DNA of 64,000 bases from an uncultured Acidobacteriota bacterium. Lineage in GTDB: Bacteria > Acidobacteriota > Vicinamibacteria > Vicinamibacterales > UBA2999. Both the position numbers and the translations under genes were made by a program. Where the stretch lies: positions 8,329 to 72,328 of the forward strand of contig CADEFD010000004.1 in NCBI GenBank assembly GCA_902826515.1, given 5' to 3'. Below are positions 1 to 27,368 of this stretch, piece after piece (the first letter of the stretch is position 1; each line of letters begins with the position of its first letter). Under the pieces are notes generated by a model. That model searched no databases and was not told the DNA's origin. It saw nothing but the letters and a program-made list of their open reading frames with translations.

Positions 1-1083
1 GGCTTCGTCGAGCAGTTCGAAGACCCGCTCGGCCGAGGCCACGGTGAGCTGGATGGTGTTGGCGATGCTGCTCAGCTGCGAGATCGGCATCGAGAACTGG
101 CGGCTGTACTGGATGAACGCCTGCACGTCGCCGATGGCGATGGCGCGCCGCGTCACGAGCAGGCCGCCGATGACCGCCACCGCGACGTAGCCGAGGTTGC
201 CGATGAACATCATCACCGGGAACATGATGCCGGTCACGAACTGGGCCCGCCACGCGCCGTCGTAGTAGGTGTGGTTGAGCGTGCCGAAGCGGCTGATGGC
301 GCGGGCCTCGTGGCCGAAGGCCGTCACGATCGCGTGCCCGGCGTACATCTCGGCGACGTGGCCGTTGAGTTCGCCGAGCGCCTGCTGCTGCCGCACGAAG
401 TACCCCTGCGAACGTTTCGCGATGCGCGACACGACCATCACGCTCAGCGGCAGCGTCAGCACCACGACCACGGTCAGGATCCAGCTGATCGTGAGCATCA
501 TGACGATGATGCCGACGACGGTGAGAACCGACGTCAGCAGCTGCGTGAGGTTCTGCTGCAGTGTGCTGCTGATGTTGTCGAGGTCGTTGACGGCGCGGCT
601 CAGGATCTCGCCGTGGGTCTTCGAGTCGAAGTAGCGCAGCGGCAGGCGGCTGAACTTGGCTTCCACCGCCTGGCGCAGCGCGTAGACGGTGCGCTGGGCC
701 ACGCCCGACATCAGATACTGCTGCACGTACTGGAAGAGCGCGCTCACGACGAAGAGCACGAGCAGCGTCAGGAGCGTGCGGCTCACGGCCGCGAAGTTGA
801 TGCCGGCGCCGCCGAGCCGGCGGCTCAGGTAGCCCTCGAAGATGGTCGTCGTCACCCCGCCCATGAGCTTCGGGCCGATGACGCTGAAGAGTGTGGAGAT
901 GACGCCGGCCGCAACCACGACGAGCAGGGTGGCGCGGTGCGGCGCCAGATAACCCGCCAGCCGGCGCAGCGAGCCCTTGAAATTGCGGGCCTTCTGCGCA
1001 GGCACGCCGAGGCCGGCCATCGGACCGCGCCCGAACGGGCTGGCCGATGGCGCCTGGCGCGGCGGGGCAGCGGCCGCGCTCAT
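1..1083 (-). CDS. ABC transporter ATP-binding/permease subunit (type-1 exporter), 5' part only; gene runs off the window start
   Basis: Not in the ORF track because it leaves the window. Reverse-strand reading from ATG at 1083 (ATGA overlap with the stop of the upstream ABC gene) gives MSAAAAPPRQ...RNFKGSLRRLAGYLAPHR...SRAVNDLDNISSTLQQNL, a typical exporter transmembrane domain. Confidence 0.85.
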   Translation of the reverse strand, partial: MSAAAAPPRQAPSASPFGRGPMAGLGVPAQKARNFKGSLRRLAGYLAPHRATLLVVVAAGVISTLFSVIGPKLMGGVTTTIFEGYLSRRLGGAGINFAAVSRTLLTLLVLFVVSALFQYVQQYLMSGVAQRTVYALRQAVEAKFSRLPLRYFDSKTHGEILSRAVNDLDNISSTLQQNLTQLLTSVLTVVGIIVMMLTISWILTVVVVLTLPLSVMVVSRIAKRSQGYFVRQQQALGELNGHVAEMYAGHAIVTAFGHEARAISRFGTLNHTYYDGAWRAQFVTGIMFPVMMFIGNLGYVAVAVIGGLLVTRRAIAIGDVQAFIQYSRQFSMPISQLSSIANTIQLTVASAERVFELLDEA

Positions 1084-2807
1084 GCGACCTCCTCGCGCGA
1101 GGCCTGCGATTCGGCGATCTCGCGATAGACCTCGCAGCTGCGCATCAGCTCGGCGTGTCGGCCGATGCCGGCCACGCGGCCATCGTCGAGCACGATGATG
1201 CGGTCGGCGCCCATCACGGTGCCGATCCGCTGCGACACCACGAACACCGTGGCGGCCGTGGTCTCGGCCCTGAGCGCGGCCCGCAGCCGGGCGTCGGTCG
1301 CGAAGTCGAGCGCCGAGAAGCTGTCGTCGAACACGTAGATCGCGGCGCCGCGCACGAGCGCGCGGGCGATCGCGAGCCGCTGCTTCTGTCCGCCCGAGAG
1401 ATTCGTGCCGCCCTGCGACACCGGGGCATCGTAGCCCTCGGGCATGGCATCGATGAACTCGGCCGCCTGGGCCACGGCAGCGGCCCGGCGCATCTCGTCG
1501 TCGCTGGCCGCTTCGTGCCCGAAGCGGATGTTGGTGGCGATGGTGCCCGAGAAGAGCACGGTCTTCTGCGGCACGTAGCCGATGCCGGCGCGCAGGGCGT
1601 CCTGCCGCCACTCGCGCACGTCGACGCCGTCGACGAGCACGCGGCCGTGGTGCACGTCGTAGAAGCGCGGGATGAGGCCGGCGAGGGTGGACTTGCCGGC
1701 GCCGGTGCCGCCGATGACGGCCGTGACCTCACCGGGCCGGGCCGTGAACGACACGCCCGAGAGAGCGGGCTCTTCCGCGCCGGGATACTGGAAGGTGACG
1801 TCCTGGAACTCGACGAGACCGGTCATCGCGGCGGTCTCGCGCGGCACCGCCTGGTCGGTCACCTCGGGTTCGACCAGCAGCACCTCGGTGATGCGGGCGG
1901 CCGAGGCGGCGGCGCGCGGCAGCGTCACGAACACCGCCGTGACCATGAAGACGGCAAACAGGATCTGGATGGCGTACTGCAGCGACGCCATCATCGCGCC
2001 GACCTGCATGGTGCCGCCGTCGATCCGCGACGCGCCCAGCCACAGGATCGTGAGGCTGGTCAGGTTCATGGTCAGGAACATCGCCGGCATCAGCAGCGCC
2101 ACGAGGCGGTTGACGCGGATGGCGGTGGCCGTCACGTCCTCGTTGGCGGCGGCGAAGCGACGGCTCTCGTGGGCGCTGCGGTCGAAGGCGCGGATGACGC
2201 GCACCCCCGAGAGCCCCTCGTCGAGCACCAGGTTCAGGCGGTCGATCTTCGCCTGCATCTGCTGGAAGAGCGGCACCGCGGCCCACATGATCGCCAGGAA
2301 CACGAGCCCGAGCACCGGAATCACCGTGAGGAGCACGCGCGCGAGGCCGGCATCCTGCGAGTACGAGAGCACCACACCGCCGATCGCCATCATCGGCGCG
2401 GTGACGGCCATGCTGAGCAGCATGAGCAGCACCTGCTGCACCTGCGTCGTGTCGTTGGTGGTGCGGGTGATGAGCGACGCGGTGCTGAAGCGGTCGAACT
2501 GATGCACCGGGAAACGCGCCACCCGCGCGAAGAGGGCGTCGCGCACGGCCCGCCCGAAGCCCACGGCGACCCGCGACGAGAAGTAGCTGGCGCCGACCGC
2601 GCAGGCGGTGCCGATGACGGCGACGACGAGCATCAGCCCGCCGATCTCGAAGATCCGGCGGGTGTCGCCGACCACGATGCCGTGGTCCACGATGTCGGCC
2701 ATGAGCCGCGGCAGGTAGAGGTTGGCGAGCGACTGGGCGAGGGCGAGCGCCAGCACCGACGCCACCGGCGCGCGGAAGGGCCGGAGGAAGCGGACGAGCA
2801 TCAACAT
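1080..2807 (-). CDS. ABC transporter ATP-binding/permease subunit (MsbA/MdlB-like exporter)
   Basis: 575-aa ORF with a transmembrane domain, then Walker A GGTGAGKST, signature LSGGQKQRLAIARAL and Walker B IYVFDDSFSALD. The start/stop overlap with the downstream partner suggests a heterodimeric pair. Confidence 0.95.
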   Translation of the reverse strand: MLMLVRFLRPFRAPVASVLALALAQSLANLYLPRLMADIVDHGIVVGDTRRIFEIGGLMLVVAVIGTACAVGASYFSSRVAVGFGRAVRDALFARVARFPVHQFDRFSTASLITRTTNDTTQVQQVLLMLLSMAVTAPMMAIGGVVLSYSQDAGLARVLLTVIPVLGLVFLAIMWAAVPLFQQMQAKIDRLNLVLDEGLSGVRVIRAFDRSAHESRRFAAANEDVTATAIRVNRLVALLMPAMFLTMNLTSLTILWLGASRIDGGTMQVGAMMASLQYAIQILFAVFMVTAVFVTLPRAAASAARITEVLLVEPEVTDQAVPRETAAMTGLVEFQDVTFQYPGAEEPALSGVSFTARPGEVTAVIGGTGAGKSTLAGLIPRFYDVHHGRVLVDGVDVREWRQDALRAGIGYVPQKTVLFSGTIATNIRFGHEAASDDEMRRAAAVAQAAEFIDAMPEGYDAPVSQGGTNLSGGQKQRLAIARALVRGAAIYVFDDSFSALDFATDARLRAALRAETTAATVFVVSQRIGTVMGADRIIVLDDGRVAGIGRHAELMRSCEVYREIAESQASREEVA

Positions 2808-2844
2808 CGGCGGGATGTTCCGATCCTCTCACACCCGCGCGTCG

Positions 2845-4095
2845 TCATGGCTCGGTGATGATGCCGAGCTCGACGTAGCGCGGGCGCACGGCGTCGCGCA
2901 TCGCCGGGAGCTGCCGCCAGAACCAGAGCGCCATGAGCAGACAGGTGCCGCCGCTGAGCGCGTAGGTGGCCTCGACGCCGATCCGCGCCGCCAGCGACCC
3001 GGCGAGCAGGCTGCCGAGCGGCCCCGATCCGGCGAGCGCGATCGTGTAGAACGACATCACCCGGCCGCGCCGGTCGTCGTCCACGATCGTCTGCACGATG
3101 GTGTTCGTGGCGACCACCTGGTACATCAGGCCGTAACCGGTCACCGTCATGAGCGCCATCGACAGCCAGAGGTACGGCGACTGGCCGAGCAGGATGCAGC
3201 CGATGCCGAAGCCGCCCACGGCGAAGGCGATGAGGCGGCCGAGGCCCACGACCGTCGTGCGCAGCACGAGGCGCACCGCGCAGGCAAGCGCGCCGACGCC
3301 GGTCGCCGCCATGAGCAGCCCGAGCGTGTGGGCGCCGCCGCCCAGGGTGCGCCCGGCGAGCACCGGCGTGAGCACCGAATACGGCGCGCTCAGCACGCCG
3401 ATAGCGGCGAGGAAGATGAAGAGGGTGCGGATGGGCGTGGACTGCACGATGTAGCGCCAGCCGTCGGTGAGTTCTTCCCACACGTGGCGCTCCGTCCGCG
3501 GCCGGGTGTCGGGCGTGAGCCGCATCGCCAGCAGGCCCCAGATGACGGCGAGGTAACTGAGGCCGTCGATGAGGAAGCAGTAACCTTCGCCCACCGCCGC
3601 CACGACCACGCCGGCAATCGCCGGGCCCACGAGCCGTGTGGCGTTGAAGTTCGACGAGTTGAGGGCGATGGCGTTGCTGAGGTCGGCGCGATCGTCGATC
3701 ATCCGCACCACGAAGGCCTGGCGCGTCGGGATCTCGACCGCGCTCACGACCCCCTGGAAGAGCGCGAGGCCGATGATCCACGGGATCGTGATGTGATCCG
3801 TCAGCGTGAGCGCCGCCATGGCGAGCGACTGCGCCATGGCCAGCACCTGCACCACGATGAGCACCTTGTGGCGGTCGTAGCGGTCGAGCCAGACACCGGC
3901 AAGCGGCGGCAGGACGAGCGATGGCGCCTGGCTGGCGAAGGCGACCAGGCCGAGCAGGAACTCCGAGTCGGTGAGCCGGTAGACCAGCCACGAGGTGGCC
4001 AGCCGCGTCATCCACGAGCCGATGAGCGAGATGCCCTGGCCGATGAAGAACAGCCGGTAGTTGCGCGACCTGAGCGCGCGGAGCGGCGAACTCAC
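2845..4095 (-). CDS. MFS transporter (EntS/MFS_3-like)
   Basis: 416-aa ORF. N-terminus RSRNYRLFFIGQGISLIGSWM and about 12 hydrophobic segments. GTG start overlaps the stop of the upstream M13 peptidase gene. Confidence 0.88.
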   Translation of the reverse strand: MSSPLRALRSRNYRLFFIGQGISLIGSWMTRLATSWLVYRLTDSEFLLGLVAFASQAPSLVLPPLAGVWLDRYDRHKVLIVVQVLAMAQSLAMAALTLTDHITIPWIIGLALFQGVVSAVEIPTRQAFVVRMIDDRADLSNAIALNSSNFNATRLVGPAIAGVVVAAVGEGYCFLIDGLSYLAVIWGLLAMRLTPDTRPRTERHVWEELTDGWRYIVQSTPIRTLFIFLAAIGVLSAPYSVLTPVLAGRTLGGGAHTLGLLMAATGVGALACAVRLVLRTTVVGLGRLIAFAVGGFGIGCILLGQSPYLWLSMALMTVTGYGLMYQVVATNTIVQTIVDDDRRGRVMSFYTIALAGSGPLGSLLAGSLAARIGVEATYALSGGTCLLMALWFWRQLPAMRDAVRPRYVELGIITEP

Positions 4096-6140
4096 CAGAT
4101 CTTCACGCGTTCGTTCGGCGGCCGGTACATCCGGTCGCCCGGCTTCACGTCCCAGGCGTCGTAGAAGGCCTGGAGGTTCGTGAGCGGCACGAGCGCGCGG
4201 TAGTCACCCGGGGAGTGCGGGTCGGTCAGCAGGCGCTGGCGCAGCGCGTCCTCGCGCATGCGCGTGCGCCACACCTGCGCCCAACCCAGGAAAAACCGCT
4301 GATCGCCGGTGAACCCGTCGATGACGGGGGCGGGCGCGCCGCCGAGCGACATCCGGTAGGCGCGATGCGCCATGGCGAGGCCGCTCAGGTCGCCGATGTT
4401 CTCGCCGAGGGTCAGGCGGCCGTTGATCTTCATGCCGGGCAGCGGCTCGTAGGCCTCGAACTGCGCGGCCAGCCGGCCCGTACGCTCCTCGAAGGCCTTC
4501 AGGTCGGCCTCCGTGAACCAGTTGCGCAGGTTGCCGTCGCCGTCGGACTTGGCGCCCTGATCGTCGAAGCCGTGGCTGATCTCGTGGCCGATGACGGCGC
4601 CGATGGCACCGTAGTTGACGGCGTCGTCGGCCTCCACGTTGAAGAAGGGCGGCTGCAGGATCGCGGCCGGGAACACGATCTCGTTGTTGGCGGGGTTGTA
4701 GTAGGCATTGACCGTCTGCGGCGTCATGCTCCAGCGCGCGCGGTCCACCGGCTGGCCGAGCCGCGTCACCATGTCGTCGTAGGCGAAGGTGTAGGCGCGC
4801 TTCGCGTTGCCGAGGGCGTCGTCCTTCTTCACGACGATCGACGAGACGTCACGCCACTGGTCGGGATAGGCGATCTTCACGCTGAACTTCGCGAGTTTGG
4901 CCTGCGCCTGGGCCTTGGTGGCCGGGCTCATCCACTCGAGCTCGTCGATGCCCGCCTTGAACGCGGCGAGCAGGTTCGTCACGAGCTGGTCCATGCGCGC
5001 CTTCGCGTCGGCCTTGAAATACCGCTCCACGTAGAGCCGGCCGAGCGCCTCGCCGATGGCGCCTTCCACTTCGTCGACGCCGCGTTTGGGCCGCGGCCGC
5101 ATTTCCTGCTGGCCTGACAGCGTTCTGCCGCGGAACTCGAACTGCGCCCGGCCGAACGCCTCCGGCAGTTCATCGGCGTAGGTGGCGAGCACGCGGAAGA
5201 CGAGCAGCTCCTTCCACGTCGCGAGCGGCGTCTCGCGCAGGATGGCATCGAGCGCCTTCAGGTAGTCGGGTTGACGCACCACGACGTCGGTGGCCTTCTC
5301 GAGGCCGGCCGCGCGCAGGTAGGCCGGCCAGGTGAACGACGGCGTCAGCGCGCCGAGCTCCGCCACGGTCATCTTGTTATAGGTGGCGTCGCGGTCGCGC
5401 GTGCGGGCGCGGTCCCAGTGTTTCTCGGCGATGGCCGTCTCGAGCGCGAGGATGCGGGCGGCGGCGCCGGCCGGGTCCGGCTGCTTTGCGAGCGTCAGCA
5501 TCGTCGTGATGTAGGTGACGTAGGCGGCCCGCGTGGCGTCGAACCTCTCGTCCTTCCGCAGGTAGTAGTCGCGGTCGGGCATGCCGAGGCCCGACTGGTT
5601 CACCGACACGATGTAGCTGTCGGACTTCTTCTGGTCCTGGCCCACGAAGGCGACGAACGGGCCGCCCACGCCGATGCGCGCCATGCGGCCGAAGAGCCCT
5701 GGCAGGTCGCCCGGCGCGGTGAGCGCCGCAATCGCCTTGAGCTCGGTGCCGAGCGGCTCGGTGCCGAGCGCCTCGATACGCGCCGTGTCCATGAAGGCCA
5801 GATAGAGGTCCGCGACCTGCTGCGCCGTGGACCCCGGCGTCTGCGGCGTCTTCGTGACCGAATCGATGATCTCCTTGAGCGCCGCGTCGCTCTTGTCGGC
5901 GAGCTCGACGAACGACCCCCACGTCGAGCGGTCAGCCGGGATCTCCGTGGTCTTCATCCAGGTGCCGTTGACGAAGCGGTTGAAGTCGTCCTGCGGACGC
6001 ACGGTGCGGTCGAAGGCGGCGAGATCGACGCCCAGGGCGCGTGGCGCCGGCTGCGCGGTGAGGGCGGCGCCGCCGGCGGCGAGGGCCACGAGCGCGGCGG
6101 CGCATACGGAGCGGGCGGAGGTCCGGAGGATGCGGGTCAT
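4092..6140 (-). CDS. M13 family zinc metallopeptidase (PepO / endothelin-converting-enzyme-like), secreted
   Basis: HEISHGFDDQG (HExxH) and GENIGDLSG motifs. Signal-like N-terminus MTRILRTSARSVCAAALVALAAGGAALTAQ from ATG at 6140. The ORF-track start at 6179 is an alternative. Confidence 0.93.
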   Translation of the reverse strand: MTRILRTSARSVCAAALVALAAGGAALTAQPAPRALGVDLAAFDRTVRPQDDFNRFVNGTWMKTTEIPADRSTWGSFVELADKSDAALKEIIDSVTKTPQTPGSTAQQVADLYLAFMDTARIEALGTEPLGTELKAIAALTAPGDLPGLFGRMARIGVGGPFVAFVGQDQKKSDSYIVSVNQSGLGMPDRDYYLRKDERFDATRAAYVTYITTMLTLAKQPDPAGAAARILALETAIAEKHWDRARTRDRDATYNKMTVAELGALTPSFTWPAYLRAAGLEKATDVVVRQPDYLKALDAILRETPLATWKELLVFRVLATYADELPEAFGRAQFEFRGRTLSGQQEMRPRPKRGVDEVEGAIGEALGRLYVERYFKADAKARMDQLVTNLLAAFKAGIDELEWMSPATKAQAQAKLAKFSVKIAYPDQWRDVSSIVVKKDDALGNAKRAYTFAYDDMVTRLGQPVDRARWSMTPQTVNAYYNPANNEIVFPAAILQPPFFNVEADDAVNYGAIGAVIGHEISHGFDDQGAKSDGDGNLRNWFTEADLKAFEERTGRLAAQFEAYEPLPGMKINGRLTLGENIGDLSGLAMAHRAYRMSLGGAPAPVIDGFTGDQRFFLGWAQVWRTRMREDALRQRLLTDPHSPGDYRALVPLTNLQAFYDAWDVKPGDRMYRPPNERVKIW

Positions 6141-17790: not shown

Positions 17791-19275
17791 CTAGCGGTAC
17801 TGGAAGGCGGGCGCGGCAATCGAAGCGGCGACGTCCGCGGTGACTGCCGGCGGCAGACGCAGCCCCGGCACGCGTCCGGCGCCGAGGTCCGCGGCGAAGT
17901 TCACGCGGCCCACGAGCGCGCCGGCGGCCGCCCACGTGGCCGCGGTGTCGTCGTAGCCGGTGGGCGGCTGGCAGAGGTAGAGCGGCATCCCGAGTTCGCG
18001 CAAGGTGCGGGTCAGCGGGCGCGCCGATCGCACATCGGCGGCGGTCGCGCGCAGCGCGCTCGCCACGAACTCGAGCGGCGTCTTGAGCTTCGCGCCGGCC
18101 GCCGCGGGCGCGAAGAACTCCGGCGACGTCACGATGACGCGCACCACCTCCCGCAGGTCGCCGTCGGTCTCGCGGAACCGCGCCGCGGCGCGCTCGACGA
18201 GCGCCTCGGGCGGCGTGTCACCCACGAAGCGCGTCGCCAGCATCCGCGCCACGCGGCGGGCGGTGGCCGGATGTGCGCTCAGCAGGTCGAGTACCACCTC
18301 GCCGTCCTCGATGCCACGACCGGCCGGCAGCGTATGGCCGAGCACCGTCTTGGCGCCGCGGTCGTGCAGCGCCGGCACGAAGCGGAAGCCGGACCCCTCG
18401 CGCGGCTGCATCGTCCAGCCGGTGAAGGCGCGGGCCACGGCCACGACGTCGGCCTGCGTGTAGCCGCCGTCCACCCCGAGCGTGTGCAGCTCGAGCAGTT
18501 CGCGCGCGTAGTTCTCGTTCAGGCCGCGCGGCGGCCGCGGCGGCGCTGCGGCCGGGCGCCGGGCGGCGCGACGCGGAGCCGCGCCGGCCCGCCGCGCGCC
18601 GGCCTCGGGATCGACGTTCTCCCAGTTGTCGAGATAGAAGAGCATCGCCGGGTGCCGTGCCGTGGCGCCGAGCAGGTCGCGGAAGCGGCCGAACACGTAG
18701 GGGCGGATGGCGTCGCGTTCGTAGGCCGTGACGTAGCTGCGCGTGGGACCCTTGCCGGCGAACACGTTGAAGTGGTTGAACCACGCGTCGGTGAGCACGG
18801 CCTCGAGCTGGCGCTCGCTGTAGACGGCGCGCAGCAGCTTCGCCTCCTCGAGCTCGTCGAGCACGAGACGCCGCTTCGCCTGGGCCGCTGACGGCGCGGG
18901 CCGCGCTGCGCTGCTCGCGGCGTCCGGCGCGGCCGCCCCGGTGGCCGCTCGCTGACGTGCGCGCCGTTCCTCGATGGCGGGGCGCTCGAACTCCTGCACG
19001 ATCGTGCGCGCGTCGAGTGTGAGGGTCGTGAAGGCCGACAGCCGGGCGTCGAGCGCGCCATCGTCGAGGCGCGCGGGGTGGAGCTGCTGCTCGATCCACG
19101 CGGCCACGCCGACCCGGCGGACGGCGGCGACGTCACCGGGGCGCGGGCCGTAGCCGAGCCGGTGCAGCACATGCGTGGCGGCGCGATCGTCCTCGGGGAT
19201 CGCCGGCGCGGCGGTGACGAAGGCGGCACCGACGAGCAGCCCCGCCGTGAGTATCGACAGCGTGCGATTCCCCAT
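17791..19275 (-). CDS. DUF1800 domain protein
   Basis: 494 aa. HRLGYGPRPGD, ENYARELLELHTLGVDGGYTQADV and AFTGWT are hallmark DUF1800 motifs. The gene lies 8 nt upstream of its usual DUF1501 partner. Confidence 0.9.
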   Translation of the reverse strand: MGNRTLSILTAGLLVGAAFVTAAPAIPEDDRAATHVLHRLGYGPRPGDVAAVRRVGVAAWIEQQLHPARLDDGALDARLSAFTTLTLDARTIVQEFERPAIEERRARQRAATGAAAPDAASSAARPAPSAAQAKRRLVLDELEEAKLLRAVYSERQLEAVLTDAWFNHFNVFAGKGPTRSYVTAYERDAIRPYVFGRFRDLLGATARHPAMLFYLDNWENVDPEAGARRAGAAPRRAARRPAAAPPRPPRGLNENYARELLELHTLGVDGGYTQADVVAVARAFTGWTMQPREGSGFRFVPALHDRGAKTVLGHTLPAGRGIEDGEVVLDLLSAHPATARRVARMLATRFVGDTPPEALVERAAARFRETDGDLREVVRVIVTSPEFFAPAAAGAKLKTPLEFVASALRATAADVRSARPLTRTLRELGMPLYLCQPPTGYDDTAATWAAAGALVGRVNFAADLGAGRVPGLRLPPAVTADVAASIAAPAFQYR

Positions 19276-22219: not shown

Positions 22220-22780
22220 ATGGCCCGACGTCTTCGTTACCAGGTCGCGGTGTCGCTCGACGGCTTCATCGCCGGCCCGAACGGCGAGTACGACTGGATT
22301 GTCATGGACCCGGCGATCGATTTCGCCGCGATGGCGGCCGAATTCGACACGGCGGTCATGGGCCGCAAGACCTACGAGGTCGTGAACGGCGACGGCCATA
22401 TGGCGATGCTCGCCGGCATGCACTGTGTGGTCTTCTCGCGCACCCTCCCGCCGTCCTCGGCGCCGGGGCTGCGTGTGGTGGCCGACGACCCGGCCGCCGT
22501 CGTGGCCGGGCTCAAGGCCGAACCGGGCAAGGACATCTGGCTCTACGGCGGCGGCGAGCTCTTCCGTGCACTTCTCACCGCCGGGCTCGTTGATACGGTA
22601 GAGCTAGCCGTCATTCCGGTGCTCCTTGGCGCCGGGGTGCCGCTGCTGCCGGCCGGTCCGGTGGTCCCGCTCGTGCTGAGTGATCAGAAGGTCCTGCCAG
22701 CGAGCGGCATCGTCGCCCTGGCGTACGCCGTGCCCGGGGGTGTGGGGCCGGCGCCCACCATTTCTTACGTCAGAGGGTGA
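22220..22780 (+). CDS. Dihydrofolate reductase-like (RibD C-terminal domain) family protein
   Basis: MARRLRYQVAVSLDGFIAGPNGEYDW...MGRKTYE...IWLYGGGELFRALL. ATG 22220 lies 5 nt after the preceding stop. Confidence 0.85.
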   Translation: MARRLRYQVAVSLDGFIAGPNGEYDWIVMDPAIDFAAMAAEFDTAVMGRKTYEVVNGDGHMAMLAGMHCVVFSRTLPPSSAPGLRVVADDPAAVVAGLKAEPGKDIWLYGGGELFRALLTAGLVDTVELAVIPVLLGAGVPLLPAGPVVPLVLSDQKVLPASGIVALAYAVPGGVGPAPTISYVRG

Positions 22781-22858
22781 ATTTTTCCCTCCGAGAGCGG
22801 ATTCCTCCCTTGACCCAGGGGTTACACTGGATGACACTGCGTAGTTCCGGTACCCCAC

Positions 22859-23722
22859 ATGCTCAACGCCCGTACTCTCACCCTCGCGGTGACCGCTCTT
22901 GGTCTGGCTGCCTCCGCATTTGCGCAGGCGCCCACGCCCCCTGTGTCGCAGCCCGCGCCGCCGCTGCCTCTTGGTCCCACGCGCGAGCGAGGCGTCAGCG
23001 TGACGCCCTCCTACGAAGGCTGGTACCAGAACGCTGACGGCACCTACAGCCTGCTCGTGGGCTACTTCAACCGCAACAAGGGTGAAGCCCTCGACATCCC
23101 GGTGGGTCCCAACAACAAGATCGAGCCGGGCCCGATCGACCAGGGCCAGCCCACCCATTTCCAGATCGGCCGCCAGTGGGGCGTGTTCGTCATCAAGGTG
23201 CCGAAAGACTTCGGCAAGAAGATGCTGACCTGGTCGATCACCGCCAACGGCGAAACCCAGTCCATTCCCTTCGGGATCACCAACGGCTACACCATCGAGC
23301 CGTTCCAGGAAGCCGGCATGGGCAACAAGCCGCCGGAGTTCACCTTCGAGAGCGGCAAGGTGTTCGGGCCGCCCACGACGGTGTCGGCCACGCTGACCGG
23401 CACGGTCAATCAGCCGGTCGCCATCAGCTTCAAGGTCGACGACCCCAAGGAAACCAAGAAGGGCTCGGAGCTCACGAACCGGCGCGGCGCCGGCGCGGTG
23501 GCCACCGTCTCCTTCCACAAACATCGCGGGCCCGGCACGGTGAAGTTCGAACCGGCGCGGGTGGCGACGAAGACGCAGGGCGAAGCGGTCTCGACGACTG
23601 CGACGTTCAGCCTGCCGGGCGAGTACCTGCTGCGCGTGCAGGGCAACGACGAATCGGGCGAGGGCGGTGCTGGGTTCCAGTGCTGCTGGACGAATACTTA
23701 CGTGAAAGTCACCGTCAAGTAA
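22859..23722 (+). CDS. Hypothetical secreted protein, upstream partner of the heme-copper monooxygenase-like gene
   Basis: 287 aa, signal peptide MLNARTLTLAVTALGLAASAFAQA. Coding-like codon usage but lower GC than neighbours. No recognised motif. C-terminus ...GAGFQCCWTNTYVKVTVK. Confidence 0.75.
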   Translation: MLNARTLTLAVTALGLAASAFAQAPTPPVSQPAPPLPLGPTRERGVSVTPSYEGWYQNADGTYSLLVGYFNRNKGEALDIPVGPNNKIEPGPIDQGQPTHFQIGRQWGVFVIKVPKDFGKKMLTWSITANGETQSIPFGITNGYTIEPFQEAGMGNKPPEFTFESGKVFGPPTTVSATLTGTVNQPVAISFKVDDPKETKKGSELTNRRGAGAVATVSFHKHRGPGTVKFEPARVATKTQGEAVSTTATFSLPGEYLLRVQGNDESGEGGAGFQCCWTNTYVKVTVK

Positions 23723-23735
23723 CGACAGGAGCGCG

Positions 23736-25064
23736 ATGATGCAGCTTGAAATGCGGAATCTGGTGAGTGGCGCGGTCGGCGCAGTGGCCATGACGGCCCT
23801 GCTCGGCGGCGCCTCGGTGGCCTCGGCGCAGACCGCGCCGACGTTCACGAAGGACGTGGCGCCGATCTTCCAGGCGAAGTGCGAGGCCTGTCACCGGCCC
23901 GAGTCCATCGCCCCGATGTCGCTGCAGACCTGGCAGCAGGCGCGGCCGTGGGCGCGTTCGATCAAGGCGCGCGTGAGCGATCACTCGATGCCGCCGTTCC
24001 AGATCGACCGCACCGTGGGCGTCACGAAGTTCAAGAACGACGACTCGCTGAGCGCCGCCGAACTCGAGACCATCGTGAAGTGGGTGGACGCCGGCGCGCC
24101 GCAGGGCAGCGCGAAGGACATGCCCCCCGCCATCGAATGGCCGGCCGAGCAGGGCTGGAACTTCGCCAAGACGTTCGGCCAGACCGAACCCGACATGATC
24201 GTGAAGTCGGACTCGTTCACGATGCCCGCCGTGGCGCAGGACGCCTGGGACAAGCGCGTCACCCCGATCGAACTCACCGAGCCGCGCTGGGTGCGTGCCA
24301 TCGAGATCCGCCCGAGCAACATCAAGGGCCGCAAGGTCATTCACCACGCCATCGCCTACCTCGAGCAGACCGAGCCGGGCGCCGACGCCGCCGACGGTCC
24401 CGCGCCGCTCTTCATGGAATGGGCCGTGGGCAAGCAGGGCGAGATGATGCGCCCCGACACCGGCAAGCTGCTGATGCCCGGCGCGCGTTTCCGCTGGGAC
24501 ATCCACTACTCGCAGGCCGGTGAAGAGATCACCAGCAACGTCGAGATGGGCATCTACTTCTACCCGAAGGGCCAGGAGCCCAAGTACCGCACGCGTCTGT
24601 CGTTCGTGCCGGCCGCGGTGGGCAACCTCGACCTGCGCCCGAACACGGTGACGACGACCGAAGGTTTCTTCCCGCTGCGCGACAACGCCCGCATCGAAAG
24701 CTACCAGCCGCACATGCACCTGCGCGGCAAGGCGATGATGGTCGAAGCCATCCTGCCGAGCGGCCAGCGCCGCGTGCTCAGCCACACGAGCGACTTCAAC
24801 TTCATGTGGATGACCACCTTCGTCTACGCCGACGACGTGGCGCCGCTGTTGCCGAAGGGCACGCTGCTCAAGGTCACCGCGTGGCACGACAACACCAGCG
24901 CGAAGAAGACCAATCCCGATCCGAACCAGTGGGTGGGTTGGGGCGACCGCACGGTGGACGAGATGGCCCACGCGTGGATCAACATCGTCTACATGAACGA
25001 CGCCGACTTCAAGGCCGAGCAGGAAAAGCGCAAGGCCGCGACGGCCACCTCGCAGGAGCGCTAA
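23736..25064 (+). CDS. Secreted c-type heme domain fused to a PHM/DBH-like (copper type II ascorbate-dependent monooxygenase-like) domain
   Basis: 442 aa, signal peptide, VAPIFQAKCEACH. The copper-ligand pattern follows: HH (203/204), H257 in WDIHYSQ, HxH (326/328) in QPHMHLRGK, and M410 in TVDEMAHAW. AGGAG lies upstream, and the gene starts 13 nt after the previous one. Confidence 0.8.
   Translation: MMQLEMRNLVSGAVGAVAMTALLGGASVASAQTAPTFTKDVAPIFQAKCEACHRPESIAPMSLQTWQQARPWARSIKARVSDHSMPPFQIDRTVGVTKFKNDDSLSAAELETIVKWVDAGAPQGSAKDMPPAIEWPAEQGWNFAKTFGQTEPDMIVKSDSFTMPAVAQDAWDKRVTPIELTEPRWVRAIEIRPSNIKGRKVIHHAIAYLEQTEPGADAADGPAPLFMEWAVGKQGEMMRPDTGKLLMPGARFRWDIHYSQAGEEITSNVEMGIYFYPKGQEPKYRTRLSFVPAAVGNLDLRPNTVTTTEGFFPLRDNARIESYQPHMHLRGKAMMVEAILPSGQRRVLSHTSDFNFMWMTTFVYADDVAPLLPKGTLLKVTAWHDNTSAKKTNPDPNQWVGWGDRTVDEMAHAWINIVYMNDADFKAEQEKRKAATATSQER
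23880..23894 (+). other. CxxCH c-type heme attachment motif (CEACH)
   Basis: tgc gag gcc tgt cac read directly from the sequence. Confidence 0.8.
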
Positions 25065-25085
25065 GCTCCGCCGCCCGATCCGCCG

Positions 25086-25116
25086 AGGCGCGCTCCCCCA
25101 AGGGGGGCGCGCCTCG
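25086..25116. terminator. Bidirectional GC-rich hairpin between convergent genes
   Basis: GAGGCGCGC(T)CCCCC-AA-GGGGGGCGCGCCTC forms a roughly 14-bp stem with one bulged T. It lies between stop 25064 (+) and stop 25135 (-). Confidence 0.6.
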
Positions 25117-25134
25117 TGTCATGTACGGCGGGTA

Positions 25135-26157
25135 TCAGCCGGCGGAACCGACCGGTGCCGCCGCCGCCGCACCGCGCGTCAGCCACGCCGCTGCGATCTC
25201 GTACGAACGCAGCCGGGCCGCGTGATCGTGGATGTGGGAGGTGACGATGACCTCGTCGGCGCCGGTGCGGGCGACGAACTCGTCGAGCTGCGCGTGCACG
25301 GTCGCCGCGCTGCCGACGAACGAGACGCGCGTGCGCTGCAGCGGATCGGCGGGTTCGAACGCGTCGCGCATCCACTCGCGCGACGGCGGCGGCAGCGTCA
25401 CCGGGCGCCCGGCTCGCAGCGCCGCGACGCTCTCGCGGCCGGACGAGGCCAGGAACTCCGCCTCGTCGTCGGTCGCCGCGGCGACGATGTTGGCGCCGAG
25501 CATCACGTAAGGGGCGGGGAGCTGGGCGGAGGGCTGGAAGCGCTCGCGGTAGATCCGGATCGCGTCGAAGAGCATCGCCGGCGCGAAGTGTGAGGCGAAG
25601 GCGAACGGCAGGCCGAGGGCCGCCGCCACCTGCGCGCCGAACGTGCTCGAGCCGAGAATCCACACGGGCACGTGCAGGCCGGCGCCCGGGGTGGCCACGA
25701 CGGCCTGCCCGGGCCGCGGATCGTCGAAGAACGCCATCACCTCGATGACGTCGTTCGGAAACCCTTCGGGGTCGCTCTGCAGCGTGCGCCGGAGCGCGCG
25801 GGCCGCCGCGTGATCGGTGCCGGGGGCGCGGCCGAGGCCCAGATCGACCCGGCCCGGGAAGAGCGAGGCCAGCGTGCCGAACTGTTCGGCGACCTGCAGC
25901 GGCGCGTGGTTCGGCAGCATGATGCCGCCCGAGCCGATGCGGATGCGCGAGGTGCCGCCGCCGACGTGCGCGAGCAGCACGGCCGTGGCCGCGCTCGCGA
26001 TGCCCGGCATGTTGTGGTGTTCGGCCAGCCAGAAGCGCGTGTAGCCGAGGCGTTCGGCATGCTGCGCGAGCGCCAGCGTGCGGCGGAAGGCATCGGCCGT
26101 GGTGCCGCCCTGGAGCACGGGCGACAGATCGAGCACGGAAAGCGGCACGGACATCAT
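25135..26157 (-). CDS. LLM-class (luciferase-like) flavin-dependent oxidoreductase
   Basis: 340 aa. LSVLDLSPV...[21 protein letters not shown]...[13 protein letters not shown]...[19 protein letters not shown] precedes the ATG. Confidence 0.9.
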
Positions 26158-26282: not shown

Positions 26283-27368
26283 ATGTCCGCGTTGTTGGCC
26301 GCCCTCGTCGGCGGCGCCCTCCTGACCCAGCCGTCCGCCGAAGCCGCCATGCAGACCCTGCTCAAGGCCGCGGTGACGCTGCGCACCTTCGACTACTTCG
26401 CCGCCGCCTGCACGCGCGGCCCCGGCTTCGATGCCGCGGCCTCGCGTGTCATCGGGGCGTGGACGGCGTCGCAGCGCGTGGCGCAGGTGCGCGCACGGGT
26501 GGACGAGGCCGAGCGCAACCCGCGCCAGAAGCAGGTGATTACCTCGGCCGTCGAGTCGATTGCCGATCGCCTGAGCGAACAATCCATCGGCGACTGCGCG
26601 GTGGCCGTCAGCGTCACGAAGACGAGCGAAGCGCAGTTTGTGACCTCGGCGCCGGACCTGGCCGGCGCGCCGGCGCCCGGTGAGGCCGCCGCTTTGGCCG
26701 CGCCCTCAGCCGCGGCCCCGCCGTCGCCCTCGATTGTCACGCCGGCCCTGCTCGCCTCGATCGACAGCATCGGCTTCGACACGCGCGCCGGCTTCGGCGT
26801 GGGCGGTTTCATCACCACCGAGGTCGTGCCGGTCGTGCTCTTCCGCAACGGCGACGCACTGACCGACGTGCGGGGCCTGACCGCCCCGGGAGATCTCGCC
26901 GCGCACAAGACCGTCCAGCCCGGCGCGTGGACGCGCTGGCAGCGCGCCGGCGGCGAACTGCAGATCGCCCGGGCGAAGGGCTTCGCGAAGCTGCCCTTCC
27001 AGGTGACCTACGCCACGTTGCCGGCCGGCTTCACGCTTCGCGGGATGTACCGGCGCCTCGGCGGCGCCGGCACACTCGGCGTGGGCGGCACGTCGTCGGT
27101 GGCCGCGTGGGACGAGTTCCGCTTCACGGCCGACGGCGTCATCGAACGCGGTGGCGGGGCAGGCGCGAGGAGCGAGGCCGGTGGCACCTCCACGGCCACG
27201 CGCGGCACGTCGGCGGGCCAGCGCGGCACCTACCGGGTCGACGGGCTCGTGCTGCACGTCACATGGGATGACGGCACCGTCGCGCAGCACATCCTCATCA
27301 CCGATCCCGACGACCCGAAGGGCGCGATCTGGATCGACGGCCACGGCTACGCGCGGAGGGGTGAATGA
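26283..27368 (+). CDS. Hypothetical secreted two-domain protein
   Basis: 361 aa with high GC3. N-terminal hydrophobic leader ending AEA, an Ala/Pro-rich linker (AAPSAAAPPSPS), and a Gly-rich C-terminal half. No motif recognised. Confidence 0.6.
   Translation: MSALLAALVGGALLTQPSAEAAMQTLLKAAVTLRTFDYFAAACTRGPGFDAAASRVIGAWTASQRVAQVRARVDEAERNPRQKQVITSAVESIADRLSEQSIGDCAVAVSVTKTSEAQFVTSAPDLAGAPAPGEAAALAAPSAAAPPSPSIVTPALLASIDSIGFDTRAGFGVGGFITTEVVPVVLFRNGDALTDVRGLTAPGDLAAHKTVQPGAWTRWQRAGGELQIARAKGFAKLPFQVTYATLPAGFTLRGMYRRLGGAGTLGVGGTSSVAAWDEFRFTADGVIERGGGAGARSEAGGTSTATRGTSAGQRGTYRVDGLVLHVTWDDGTVAQHILITDPDDPKGAIWIDGHGYARRGE

Follow-up and report, generated by a model that had tools for sequence, protein, structure and literature searches.

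We report that a pair of adjacent genes in an uncultured Acidobacteriota bacterium probably encodes a periplasmic, two-subunit bicopper monooxygenase that is reduced through its own heme c in place of ascorbate. The pair lies in the window, the 64,000-nucleotide stretch of DNA that was analyzed. The known enzymes of this type, PHM (the core of PAM), DBH, and tyramine β-monooxygenase, are regarded as eukaryotic and ascorbate dependent, and ascorbate synthesis is absent from most bacteria. The analyses described below establish the fold and homology of the bacterial pair, the conservation of its ligands, and the coupling and fusion of the two genes.

Both genes are located on the + strand. The upstream gene (22859..23722), referred to here as the partner gene, is an ORF encoding an exported protein of 287 aa with two Ig-like β-sandwich domains (about aa 51-138 and 160-286). 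The downstream ORF (23736..25064) encodes the enzyme, a 442-aa protein composed of a signal peptide, a cytochrome c domain, and a PHM/DBH-like two-domain bicopper core. A 13-nt spacer (23723..23735, + strand; CGACAGGAGCGCG) separates the two and contains a Shine-Dalgarno sequence, AGGAG (23727-23731), 5 nt before the enzyme ATG. No terminator-like site was found on the + strand between the partner and enzyme genes. GC content is 0.64-0.69 across the gene pair compared with 0.70-0.75 in the flanks. The initial annotation of this DNA had described both ORFs and their 13-nt separation, the locally lower GC content, and the C-terminal sequence of the partner, all of which we could reproduce. The neighboring genes in the window are unrelated to the pair (DUF1800, CN-hydrolase, β-lactamase, luciferase-like monooxygenase, and MFS transporter), and neither the window nor the related loci offered a pathway clue from the genomic context of the pair. 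When ORFs from 81 loci were clustered all-vs-all, no neighbor other than the pair itself was conserved in more than 17 of the 81, in clusters that were noisy owing to high-GC alternative-frame ORFs.

The C-terminal ~270 aa of the enzyme is a true homolog of PHM and DBH. In the AF2 model of the enzyme (pLDDT 71, pTM 0.71), the strands of this region form two β-sandwiches. The N-terminal sandwich (24183..24575, + strand; about aa 150-280) aligned to the CuH domain of PHM and is its equivalent. The C-terminal sandwich (24585..24995, + strand; about aa 284-420) is the equivalent of the CuM domain, as indicated by the modeled strands, hhalign, and matches to PF03712 in relatives. A Foldseek search of the PDB with the model returned DBH or PHM for all of the top 31 matches (E 1.4e-10 to 3.7e-7, probability 1.0), and the match that followed had an E value of 5e-5 and a TM score <0.2. 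The best structural match was DBH (4ZEL; E 1.4e-10). PHM (1PHM and 1SDW) has the same two-β-sandwich fold, with an E value of about 2e-9, a target-normalized TM score of 0.51-0.62, and only 11-13% sequence identity to the window enzyme. The structural likeness to PHM and DBH that had been proposed from motifs was thus upheld.

At the sequence level, the link to PHM needed a diverse alignment (A2, 36 sequences). The resulting 36-member family profile reached rat PHM in an hmmsearch of the PDB (E 2.3e-5), and hhalign of the diverse family profile against rat PHMcc gave a 95% probability and an E value of 4e-8 over 232 columns covering both domains. On its own, the window enzyme matched neither PF01082 (Cu2_monooxygen) nor PF03712 (Cu2_monoox_C) at E up to 1, and single-sequence scans of Pfam, NCBIfam, and the PDB yielded sub-threshold cytochrome c matches and no copper domain. 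A profile built from close homologs (A1) likewise gave no copper-domain link, and a profile of the C-terminal domain alone (A3) matched DBH in the PDB at a nonsignificant E value of 1.8, ranked below chance-level matches. Within the family, PF03712 was touched by 15 of the 36 members (best E 1.7e-5) and PF01082 by 4 of 36 (best E 0.0028), and some relatives carry a precomputed PF03712 match. The membership in this enzyme family suggested in the initial annotation was therefore not recovered by the Pfam Cu2 models from the window enzyme, and it was recovered by the diverse family profile.

In the hhalign alignment with rat PHM, whose residue numbering we verified for this comparison, all six copper-ligand positions are in register and in the same order. 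In 1PHM, the two coppers lie about 11 Å apart across a solvent cleft. His203-His204 (24342..24347) correspond to the PHM CuH ligands H107/H108 (VIHHAIAY aligned with tvHHmllf), and His257 (24504..24506) corresponds to the CuH ligand H172 (DIHYSQ aligned with qvHYgd). The histidines of His326-Met327-His328 (24711..24719) correspond to the CuM ligands H242/H244 (QPHMHLRGK aligned with rvHtHhlgk), and Met410 of the DEM motif (24963..24965) corresponds to the CuM ligand M314 (TVDEMAHAW aligned with ssDEMcnly). All of these codons are on the + strand. DBH also aligns with the window enzyme at the HxHLxGK-type CuM motif and at the EEM/DEM methionine motif. The roles of these ligands in the PHM family have been reviewed (PMC12164859). 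The six residues, their spacings of 53/69/82, and the CxxCH motif at nt 23880-23894 are as originally annotated. One motif quoted for comparison required correction, as the CuM site of DBH had been given as HTHLRGK, and human DBH (4zel) reads HTHLTGRK.

Conservation was counted in 150 representatives clustered at 50% identity, using the sequences that cover a given position as the denominator. H203 was present in 128/129, H204 in 128/130, and H257 in 118/122 representatives; H326 was present in 114/114, H328 in 112/115, and M410 in 95/97. Each of the six copper-ligand positions, as well as CxxCH and Met85 in the heme domain, was 97-100% conserved, whereas the control histidines H384 and H412 were poorly kept (27% and 22% of representatives, respectively). 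This pattern among homologs agrees with the ligand assignment of the initial annotation. In the 36-sequence alignment, mean column identity is 34%, and 17 columns are invariant, 7 of which are C49, C52, H53, H203, H204, H257, and H326. At H328 and M410, conservation in the same alignment reaches 90% or more. The motifs of the enzyme are thus far beyond chance.

Upstream of the copper core, a predicted Sec signal peptide (23736..23828, + strand; aa 1-31, ...GGASVASA then QTAP), read from the translation and not from a predictor, is followed by a c-type cytochrome domain (23832..24110, + strand; about aa 33-125). This domain is mostly helical in the AF2 model, in which the heme-domain stretch is of low confidence (pLDDT 39-67 over aa 30-90). 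The heme c attachment motif CEACH (23880..23894, + strand; C49, C52, and H53) is invariant in the 36-sequence alignment, and CxxCH is kept in 111/112 representatives covering this position. C49 and C52 are the sole cysteines of the enzyme. The candidate distal axial ligand, assigned from conservation, is Met85 of an MPP motif (23988..23990, + strand), which was kept in 124/125 representatives compared with 98/116 for M61; Met85 is therefore likely the distal ligand of the heme.

Matches of the heme domain to known families were weak. Cytochrome_CBB3 scored 19.2 bits on the window enzyme, below the gathering cut-off of 27, and 34 of the 36 family members gave weak Pfam cytochrome c matches, which included Cytochrome_CBB3 (best E 4.8e-6), Haem_bd, Cytochrom_C, and PccH. 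With the family profile, the closest solved heme domains belonged to hydrazine synthase alpha (E 0.0015) and PccH (E 0.0029). The heme context had previously been likened to PSCyt1. This resemblance was not supported, as PSCyt1 (PF07635) matched neither the window enzyme (E up to 1) nor any of the 36 members (E up to 0.1).

The partner begins with a predicted Sec signal peptide (22859..22924, + strand; aa 1-22, MLNARTLTLAVTALGLAASAFA, followed by Q), also taken from the translation with no predictor, and ends in ...FQCCWTNTYVKVTVK. Its AF2 model (pLDDT 71.7) has two β domains. The fold search returned heterogeneous Ig-like matches only (TM <0.3) and no chaperone, quinoprotein, or DOMON relative. 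Neither Pfam nor NCBIfam placed the partner in a family (a weak PKD match had an E value of 0.043), and no sequence match was found in the PDB, even with a profile. Because the fold matches were generically Ig-like and there was no sequence family, we dropped any assignment of the partner to a specific enzyme or chaperone. The partner has more than 5000 homologs. Across 66 of these (40-92% identity), the vicinal Cys275-Cys276-Trp277 (23681..23689, + strand) and the Gly-rich loop just before it (D..SG.GGGG.Q) are invariant, and no His or Met is. C275 and C276 are the only cysteines in the partner. The Gly-rich loop is predicted to be flexible, with residues 267-273 modeled at pLDDT <50.

The partner gene adjoins the enzyme gene on the same strand in 77/79 informative loci, with one clade placing it upstream of the enzyme and another placing it downstream. 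In addition, the two proteins are fused in P0243, P0252, P0253, and P0254. These fusions include both orders and a split form in which the partner wraps around the enzyme, and in P0243 the partner stands in place of the enzyme's signal-peptide segment. The conserved linkage together with these Rosetta-stone fusions confirmed the gene pairing proposed in the initial annotation. Two other apparent fusions, P0266 and P0277, were discarded as frameshift or read-through artifacts in which the two parts are linked by out-of-frame sequence rich in Arg. As judged from their sequences, the fusions make it more likely that the partner is an integral subunit than that it acts transiently in maturation. 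Cys-Cys-Trp is missing from three of the four fusions, and distant enzyme clades do not have a partner gene at all. The core chemistry must therefore be able to proceed without Cys-Cys-Trp, which is a clade-specific feature.

From these features, we infer the metal and heme loading, the direction of electron flow, the O2 chemistry, and the role of the second subunit. The 442-aa subunit would be exported by the Sec pathway and carry one covalent heme c, probably ligated by His53 and Met85, in its N-terminal domain. The first sandwich would bind a His3 electron-transfer copper, CuH (H203, H204, and H257), and the second a His2Met oxygen-activating copper, CuM (H326, H328, and M410). The fused heme would take up electrons one at a time from the pool of respiratory cytochromes in the periplasm and relay them to CuH and then to CuM, substituting for ascorbate. 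The reduced CuM would then bind O2, leading to hydroxylation of a substrate C-H bond. The partner would be an integral, non-catalytic subunit whose two Ig-like domains most likely shape or present the substrate site. Because neither R240, the carboxylate anchor of PHM, nor N316 is conserved, the substrate would not be a glycine-extended peptide. By hhalign, the PHM substrate anchors R240, N316, and Y318 are replaced by Q324, H412, and W414 in the window enzyme, and position 324 is Q, M, F, S, or E across representatives, with Arg outside the six commonest residues.

Electrons could instead flow in the opposite direction, with the bicopper core acting as an oxidase or dehydrogenase on a periplasmic substrate and the fused heme c passing electrons to the respiratory chain. 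The combination of an exported catalytic domain with a His/Met-type cytochrome c domain is typical of respiratory dehydrogenases, and when a periplasmic enzyme carries a fused c heme, that heme more commonly takes electrons off a dehydrogenase site. A very large family with paralogs and tandem cassettes would also fit an energy-linked or catabolic role, and the pair has no linked gene for a reductase or donor. Nevertheless, we consider this reversed flow quite unlikely. The complete His3 and His2Met set is conserved, a noncoupled ligand set known only from the O2-activating monooxygenases PHM, DBH, and TBM (PMC12164859), and dehydrogenase chemistry on a PHM/DBH scaffold has no precedent in the literature searched. 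It is very improbable that the PHM-like core is an inert binding or scaffold module and the protein simply a cytochrome c with a big appended domain. Such a reading would accommodate the lack of a Pfam Cu2 match to the window enzyme alone, the database names (only cytochrome c or hypothetical), and the few members, such as P0379, that are missing H328 and M410. However, these degenerate members are rare exceptions, and the six copper ligands are 97-100% conserved against a mean identity of 34% for the other columns. The PHM-like core fold also occurs in PNGase F, and Foldseek found PHM and DBH, not PNGase F.

Similarly, the partner may not be a permanent subunit, an alternative that we regard as unlikely but credible. 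It could be a maturation factor, such as a Cys-based copper donor or "caddie" (compare MelC1 for Streptomyces tyrosinase), or it could be a protein substrate of the enzyme, in which Cys-Cys-Trp is oxidized or cross-linked into a cofactor. Either role would be consistent with the invariance of Cys-Cys-Trp and the Gly-rich loop in 66 homologs, the restriction of the partner's cysteines to this motif, and the predicted flexibility of the loop (pLDDT <50 at 267-273). The arrangement also resembles that of a helper gene tightly co-transcribed beside a copper enzyme, as far as the gene order suggests, and in some partnerless clades a thioredoxin-fold domain is fused to the enzyme instead. In contrast, the covalent joining of the two proteins in either order, and in the wrap-around split form, points to a stable complex, and three of the four fusions do not contain Cys-Cys-Trp. 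Furthermore, the partner has no invariant His or Met, unlike known periplasmic Cu chaperones, and chaperone and quinoprotein relatives are absent from the fold search. The more specific identification of the partner as a PCuAC/CopC/CusF-type copper chaperone was rejected given the lack of invariant His/Met residues, the loss of C275/C276 from three of the four fusions, and the absence of a chaperone fold. We also considered that the Gly-rich loop and Cys-Cys-Trp of the partner might be redox active, as a vicinal disulfide or as a Cys/Trp-derived cross-linked cofactor that the heme-copper subunit installs or uses, and we judge this idea doubtful at best. If it held, the pair would form, by itself, a periplasmic oxygenase containing three redox centers (heme c, the two coppers, and a thiol/quinone site), a chemistry without counterpart in the animal PHM/DBH enzymes.

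The proposed heme-driven monooxygenase differs from its eukaryotic homologs in several respects. Unlike PHM, the window enzyme is bacterial and predicted to be periplasmic, has an obligate Ig-like partner, and contains an N-terminal c-type heme domain. The intradomain disulfides of PHM are absent from the window enzyme, which has cysteines in CxxCH only. The electron donor of PHM is ascorbate, whereas the window enzyme, judging by its domain composition, presumably uses another reductant. Compared with DBH, the window enzyme lacks the C-terminal dimerization domain and has an added heme c domain. The DBH core is joined to an extra β-sandwich, DOMON, which is a loose parallel to the Ig-like partner; however, the partner is a separate polypeptide with no detectable homology to DOMON. 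A protein-borne heme is known to reduce a catalytic copper in Cu nitrite reductases with a fused cytochrome c and in LPMO, where the heme belongs to the cytochrome domain of cellobiose dehydrogenase. These extracytoplasmic proteins may be functional analogues of the window enzyme in passing single electrons from heme to catalytic copper. The folds and sites of nitrite reductase (cupredoxin T1/T2 copper) and LPMO (histidine-brace copper) are unrelated to those of the window enzyme, and no homology is claimed.

The enzyme family is large, comprising 13,357 clusters at 50% identity (E up to 0.001), and some genomes encode several paralogs or tandem cassettes. Source records label the window enzyme only as "cytochrome c" or "hypothetical." Distant relatives (30-50% identity) are labeled "thiol-disulfide isomerase" in NCBI and "mono/diheme cytochrome c family protein" or [quoted passage not shown] in JGI. 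These database relatives have the same CxxCH and six ligands as the window enzyme, and their clades differ from it in having no partner gene. Some partnerless relatives bear an N-terminal AhpC/TSA-fold domain, tandem duplicated modules, or EF-hands. The "thiol-disulfide isomerase" label is probably wrong. No published function for the database relatives was found in the literature searched, and a full-text search limited to open-access papers and bioRxiv did not find a bacterial PHM/DBH-type enzyme. A 2025 specialist review makes no mention of prokaryotic relatives of PHM/DBH (PMC12164859). The enzyme family appears never to have been studied.

Collectively, these results describe a very large bacterial family that combines the full noncoupled bicopper ligand set with a hard-wired c-type heme, one large branch of which adds an obligate second subunit. 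If active, these enzymes would show how bicopper chemistry is powered without ascorbate. How electrons cross the gap between CuH and CuM is a long-standing open question, and the heme of an active enzyme would provide a built-in spectroscopic reporter of electron delivery into CuH and over the CuH-CuM gap. In animals, PHM/DBH-type enzymes carry out noradrenaline synthesis and peptide-hormone amidation. Activity of the bacterial family would point to a bacterial origin of these neurotransmitter and peptide-amidation enzymes, and it would supply a function for the thousands of genes in soil Acidobacteriota that are currently labeled "hypothetical," "cytochrome c," or "thiol-disulfide isomerase."

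Two ORFs on the forward strand, with the positions and lengths given in the initial annotation, were recovered by reading the window: one encoding the 287-aa partner (22859-23722) and one encoding the 442-aa enzyme (23736-25064). The 13-nt spacer between them, CGACAGGAGCGCG, contains a Shine-Dalgarno sequence (AGGAG, 23727-23731) ahead of the enzyme ATG, and no terminator-like site was found on the forward strand between the two genes. The GC dip noted earlier was also present (0.64-0.69 across the pair versus 0.70-0.75 in the flanks). Over 22750-25250, GC lies ~5-8 points below the flanks and AT skew is positive; the low GC may stem from the amino-acid makeup of the proteins or from horizontal acquisition of the cassette in the past. 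Nearby are an ORF of 361 aa whose N-terminus resembles a signal peptide and which has no Pfam family (26283-27368, forward strand) and a DUF1800 protein (17791-19275, reverse strand), neither of which is kept beside the cassette in the other genomes compared. The enzyme N-terminus, read from the translation, is signal-like (...GGASVASA, then QTAP), and its only two cysteines, C49 and C52, fall within the CEACH heme c attachment motif at 23880-23894, as had been reported. The enzyme is predicted to be exported and carries a motif for heme c attachment.

The C-terminal core had been likened to peptidylglycine alpha-hydroxylating monooxygenase (PHM) and dopamine beta-monooxygenase (DBH), and three independent lines of evidence upheld this. 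The AlphaFold2 model of the enzyme (pLDDT 71, pTM 0.71) has a well-predicted beta core, and its top 31 Foldseek matches in the PDB were human DBH (E = 1.4e-10) and 30 PHM entries; matches ranked below these were weak (E ≥ 5e-5, TM < 0.3). A diverse 36-member profile (mean column identity 34%) retrieved rat PHM from the PDB (E = 2.3e-5). Aligned with the rat PHM catalytic core using hhalign, this profile gave 95% probability and E = 4e-8, and the 232 aligned columns extend across both domains. The rat sequence used matched PDB PHM entries over its full length with four mismatches, all before the aligned region; PAM numbering of the ligands was confirmed. Register was kept at every PHM ligand: VIHHAIAY aligned with tvHHmllf (H107/H108), DIHYSQ with qvHYgd (H172), QPHMHLRGK with rvHtHhlgk (H242/H244), and TVDEMAHAW with ssDEMcnly (M314). 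The roles of these ligands are summarized in PMC12164859. The His and Met residues first listed for the enzyme, and their 53/69/82 spacings, were correct, but the DBH CuM motif quoted as HTHLRGK reads HTHLTGRK in human DBH. We consider assignment of the core to PHM/DBH highly probable.

The predicted copper ligands are conserved in homologs. Only 17 columns of the 36-sequence alignment are invariant, among them C49, C52, H53, H203, H204, H257, and H326; H328 and M410 are conserved in ≥90%. In a wider set of 150 representatives (50% identity clusters, including fragments), conserved/covered counts were 111/112 for CxxCH, 128/129 for H203, 128/130 for H204, 118/122 for H257, 114/114 for H326, 112/115 for H328, and 95/97 for M410. 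In contrast, H384 (28/105) and H412 (21/97), invariant in close relatives, vary over the wider family and serve as an internal control, which ties the conservation signal specifically to the predicted ligands. As distal heme ligand, M85, in an MPP motif (124/125), is more plausible than M61 (98/116). One family member, P0379, keeps CxxCH and the CuH histidines and has lost H328 and M410 (PHLPIGAS and SNTF replace PHMHxRGK and DEM); this protein is possibly a degenerate paralog lacking the CuM site.

Despite the shared fold, the enzyme is just 11-13% identical to PHM/DBH and lacks the PHM disulfide cysteines. The PHM peptide-carboxylate anchor R240 corresponds to Q324, a position occupied by Q, M, F, S, or E over the wider family, with Arg outside the six commonest residues, and N316 and Y318 correspond to H412 and W414. 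A glycine-extended peptide substrate is therefore very unlikely, as judged from these residues. Neither PHM nor DBH has a counterpart of the N-terminal heme domain, whose nearest solved relatives by profile are heme domains, those of hydrazine synthase alpha (E = 0.0015) and of PccH (E = 0.0029). The suggested planctomycete-type context was not supported, with PSCyt1 undetected in the window protein or the 36 members.

Of 81 loci searched with tblastn and an HMM of the partner, 79 were informative, and in 77 of these the partner adjoins the enzyme and is encoded on the same strand. This bears out the proposed gene pairing and points to an Ig-like subunit obligately linked to the enzyme. The partner gene directly precedes the enzyme gene where the enzyme shares at least ~68% identity with that of the window, and directly follows it in a paralogous clade (58-65% identity). 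It is missing from loci L029 and L030 and wholly absent from distant clades (30-50% identity), for instance clades within Blastocatellia. No further conserved neighbor was found beside the pair in the 81 loci. Several MAGs carry two unlinked paralogous cassettes (e.g., L005/L052, L018/L053, and L029/L042), and L039 (JAHFUL010000038.1, ~1-6066) holds a one-strand tandem array (partner fragment-enzyme-partner-enzyme-partner) in which the cassette is duplicated locally. Acidobacteria-type cassettes (60-84% identity) also occur in MAGs labeled Bifidobacterium, Bifidobacteriaceae, cyanobacterium, or Acidimicrobiia (L007, L012, L026, L027, L041, L043, and L048); these bins are probably mislabeled or contaminated.

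The partner family comprises at least 5,092 clusters. The protein has a signal peptide, a Pro-rich linker, and two beta-sandwich domains (AlphaFold2 pLDDT 71.7); fold searches returned only heterogeneous Ig-like matches, and no sequence relatives were found in Pfam, NCBIfam, or the PDB. Across 66 homologs (40-92% identity), C275-C276-W277 (CCW) and the loop D..SG.GGGG.Q are invariant, and no His or Met is. Partner and enzyme are fused in four representatives: partner-enzyme in P0243, where the enzyme lacks its own signal peptide and CCW is kept; enzyme-partner in P0253 and P0254; and partner N-domain-enzyme-partner C-domain in P0252. CCW is absent from the latter three; this pattern indicates that the motif matters in the partner's clade but is inessential to core chemistry.

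The enzyme family comprises at least 7,983 clusters at 90% identity and 13,357 representatives at 50% identity (E up to 0.001), the nearest relatives coming from Vicinamibacterales and other Acidobacteriota. Four distant members (P0260, P0338, P0339, and P0361) carry an AhpC/TSA (thioredoxin-fold) domain N-terminal to the cytochrome c-PHM-like module. In three of these, the domain has a single Cys (GTECP or GTGCP) and no CxxC, so it is not a classical TlpA-type thiol:disulfide oxidoreductase. Two complete modules per polypeptide, a tandem duplication, occur in P0391, P0392, P0260, and P0270, and EF-hand calcium-binding motifs end P0270 and P0310.

We propose that the pair forms a periplasmic heme-driven bicopper monooxygenase with a partner subunit, a prediction we favor with moderate confidence. 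The enzyme heme would be six-coordinate (His/Met) and serve in electron transfer, passing electrons from periplasmic cytochromes to CuH and on to CuM. Heme would thereby replace ascorbate, which most bacteria are not known to make. O2 would be activated at CuM to hydroxylate a non-peptidylglycine substrate, at a site that may be shaped or presented by the partner. The monooxygenase step with heme as donor is, by itself, somewhat likelier than not. Electrons might run in the opposite direction, making the enzyme a dehydrogenase that feeds the respiratory chain, which we regard as improbable. It is slightly less doubtful, though still unlikely, that the partner is a chaperone or protein substrate and no subunit; the Rosetta-stone fusions favor a stable physical association of the two proteins. 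That the PHM-like core is an inert scaffold seems scarcely credible; the core retains a complete, selectively conserved set of CuH (His3) and CuM (His2Met) ligands.

Databases already see pieces of the enzyme. The single sequence gave only sub-threshold cytochrome c matches in Pfam and no match in NCBIfam or the PDB, and PF03712 matches are precomputed for some of the distant relatives. Some relatives are labeled [quoted passage not shown] by JGI or "thiol-disulfide isomerase" by NCBI. The latter name, also attached to stand-alone cytochrome c-PHM-like proteins without a thioredoxin domain from Blastocatellia and other Acidobacteriota (e.g., P0412, P0428, P0448, and P0463), was probably propagated from AhpC/TSA-fused relatives. 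Full-text searches of open-access papers and bioRxiv found no published characterization of any bacterial member, and prokaryotes go unmentioned in a specialist PHM review from 2025 (PMC12164859). The noncoupled bicopper monooxygenase core is known; what is new is the predicted combination with a built-in electron-entry module and an obligate subunit.
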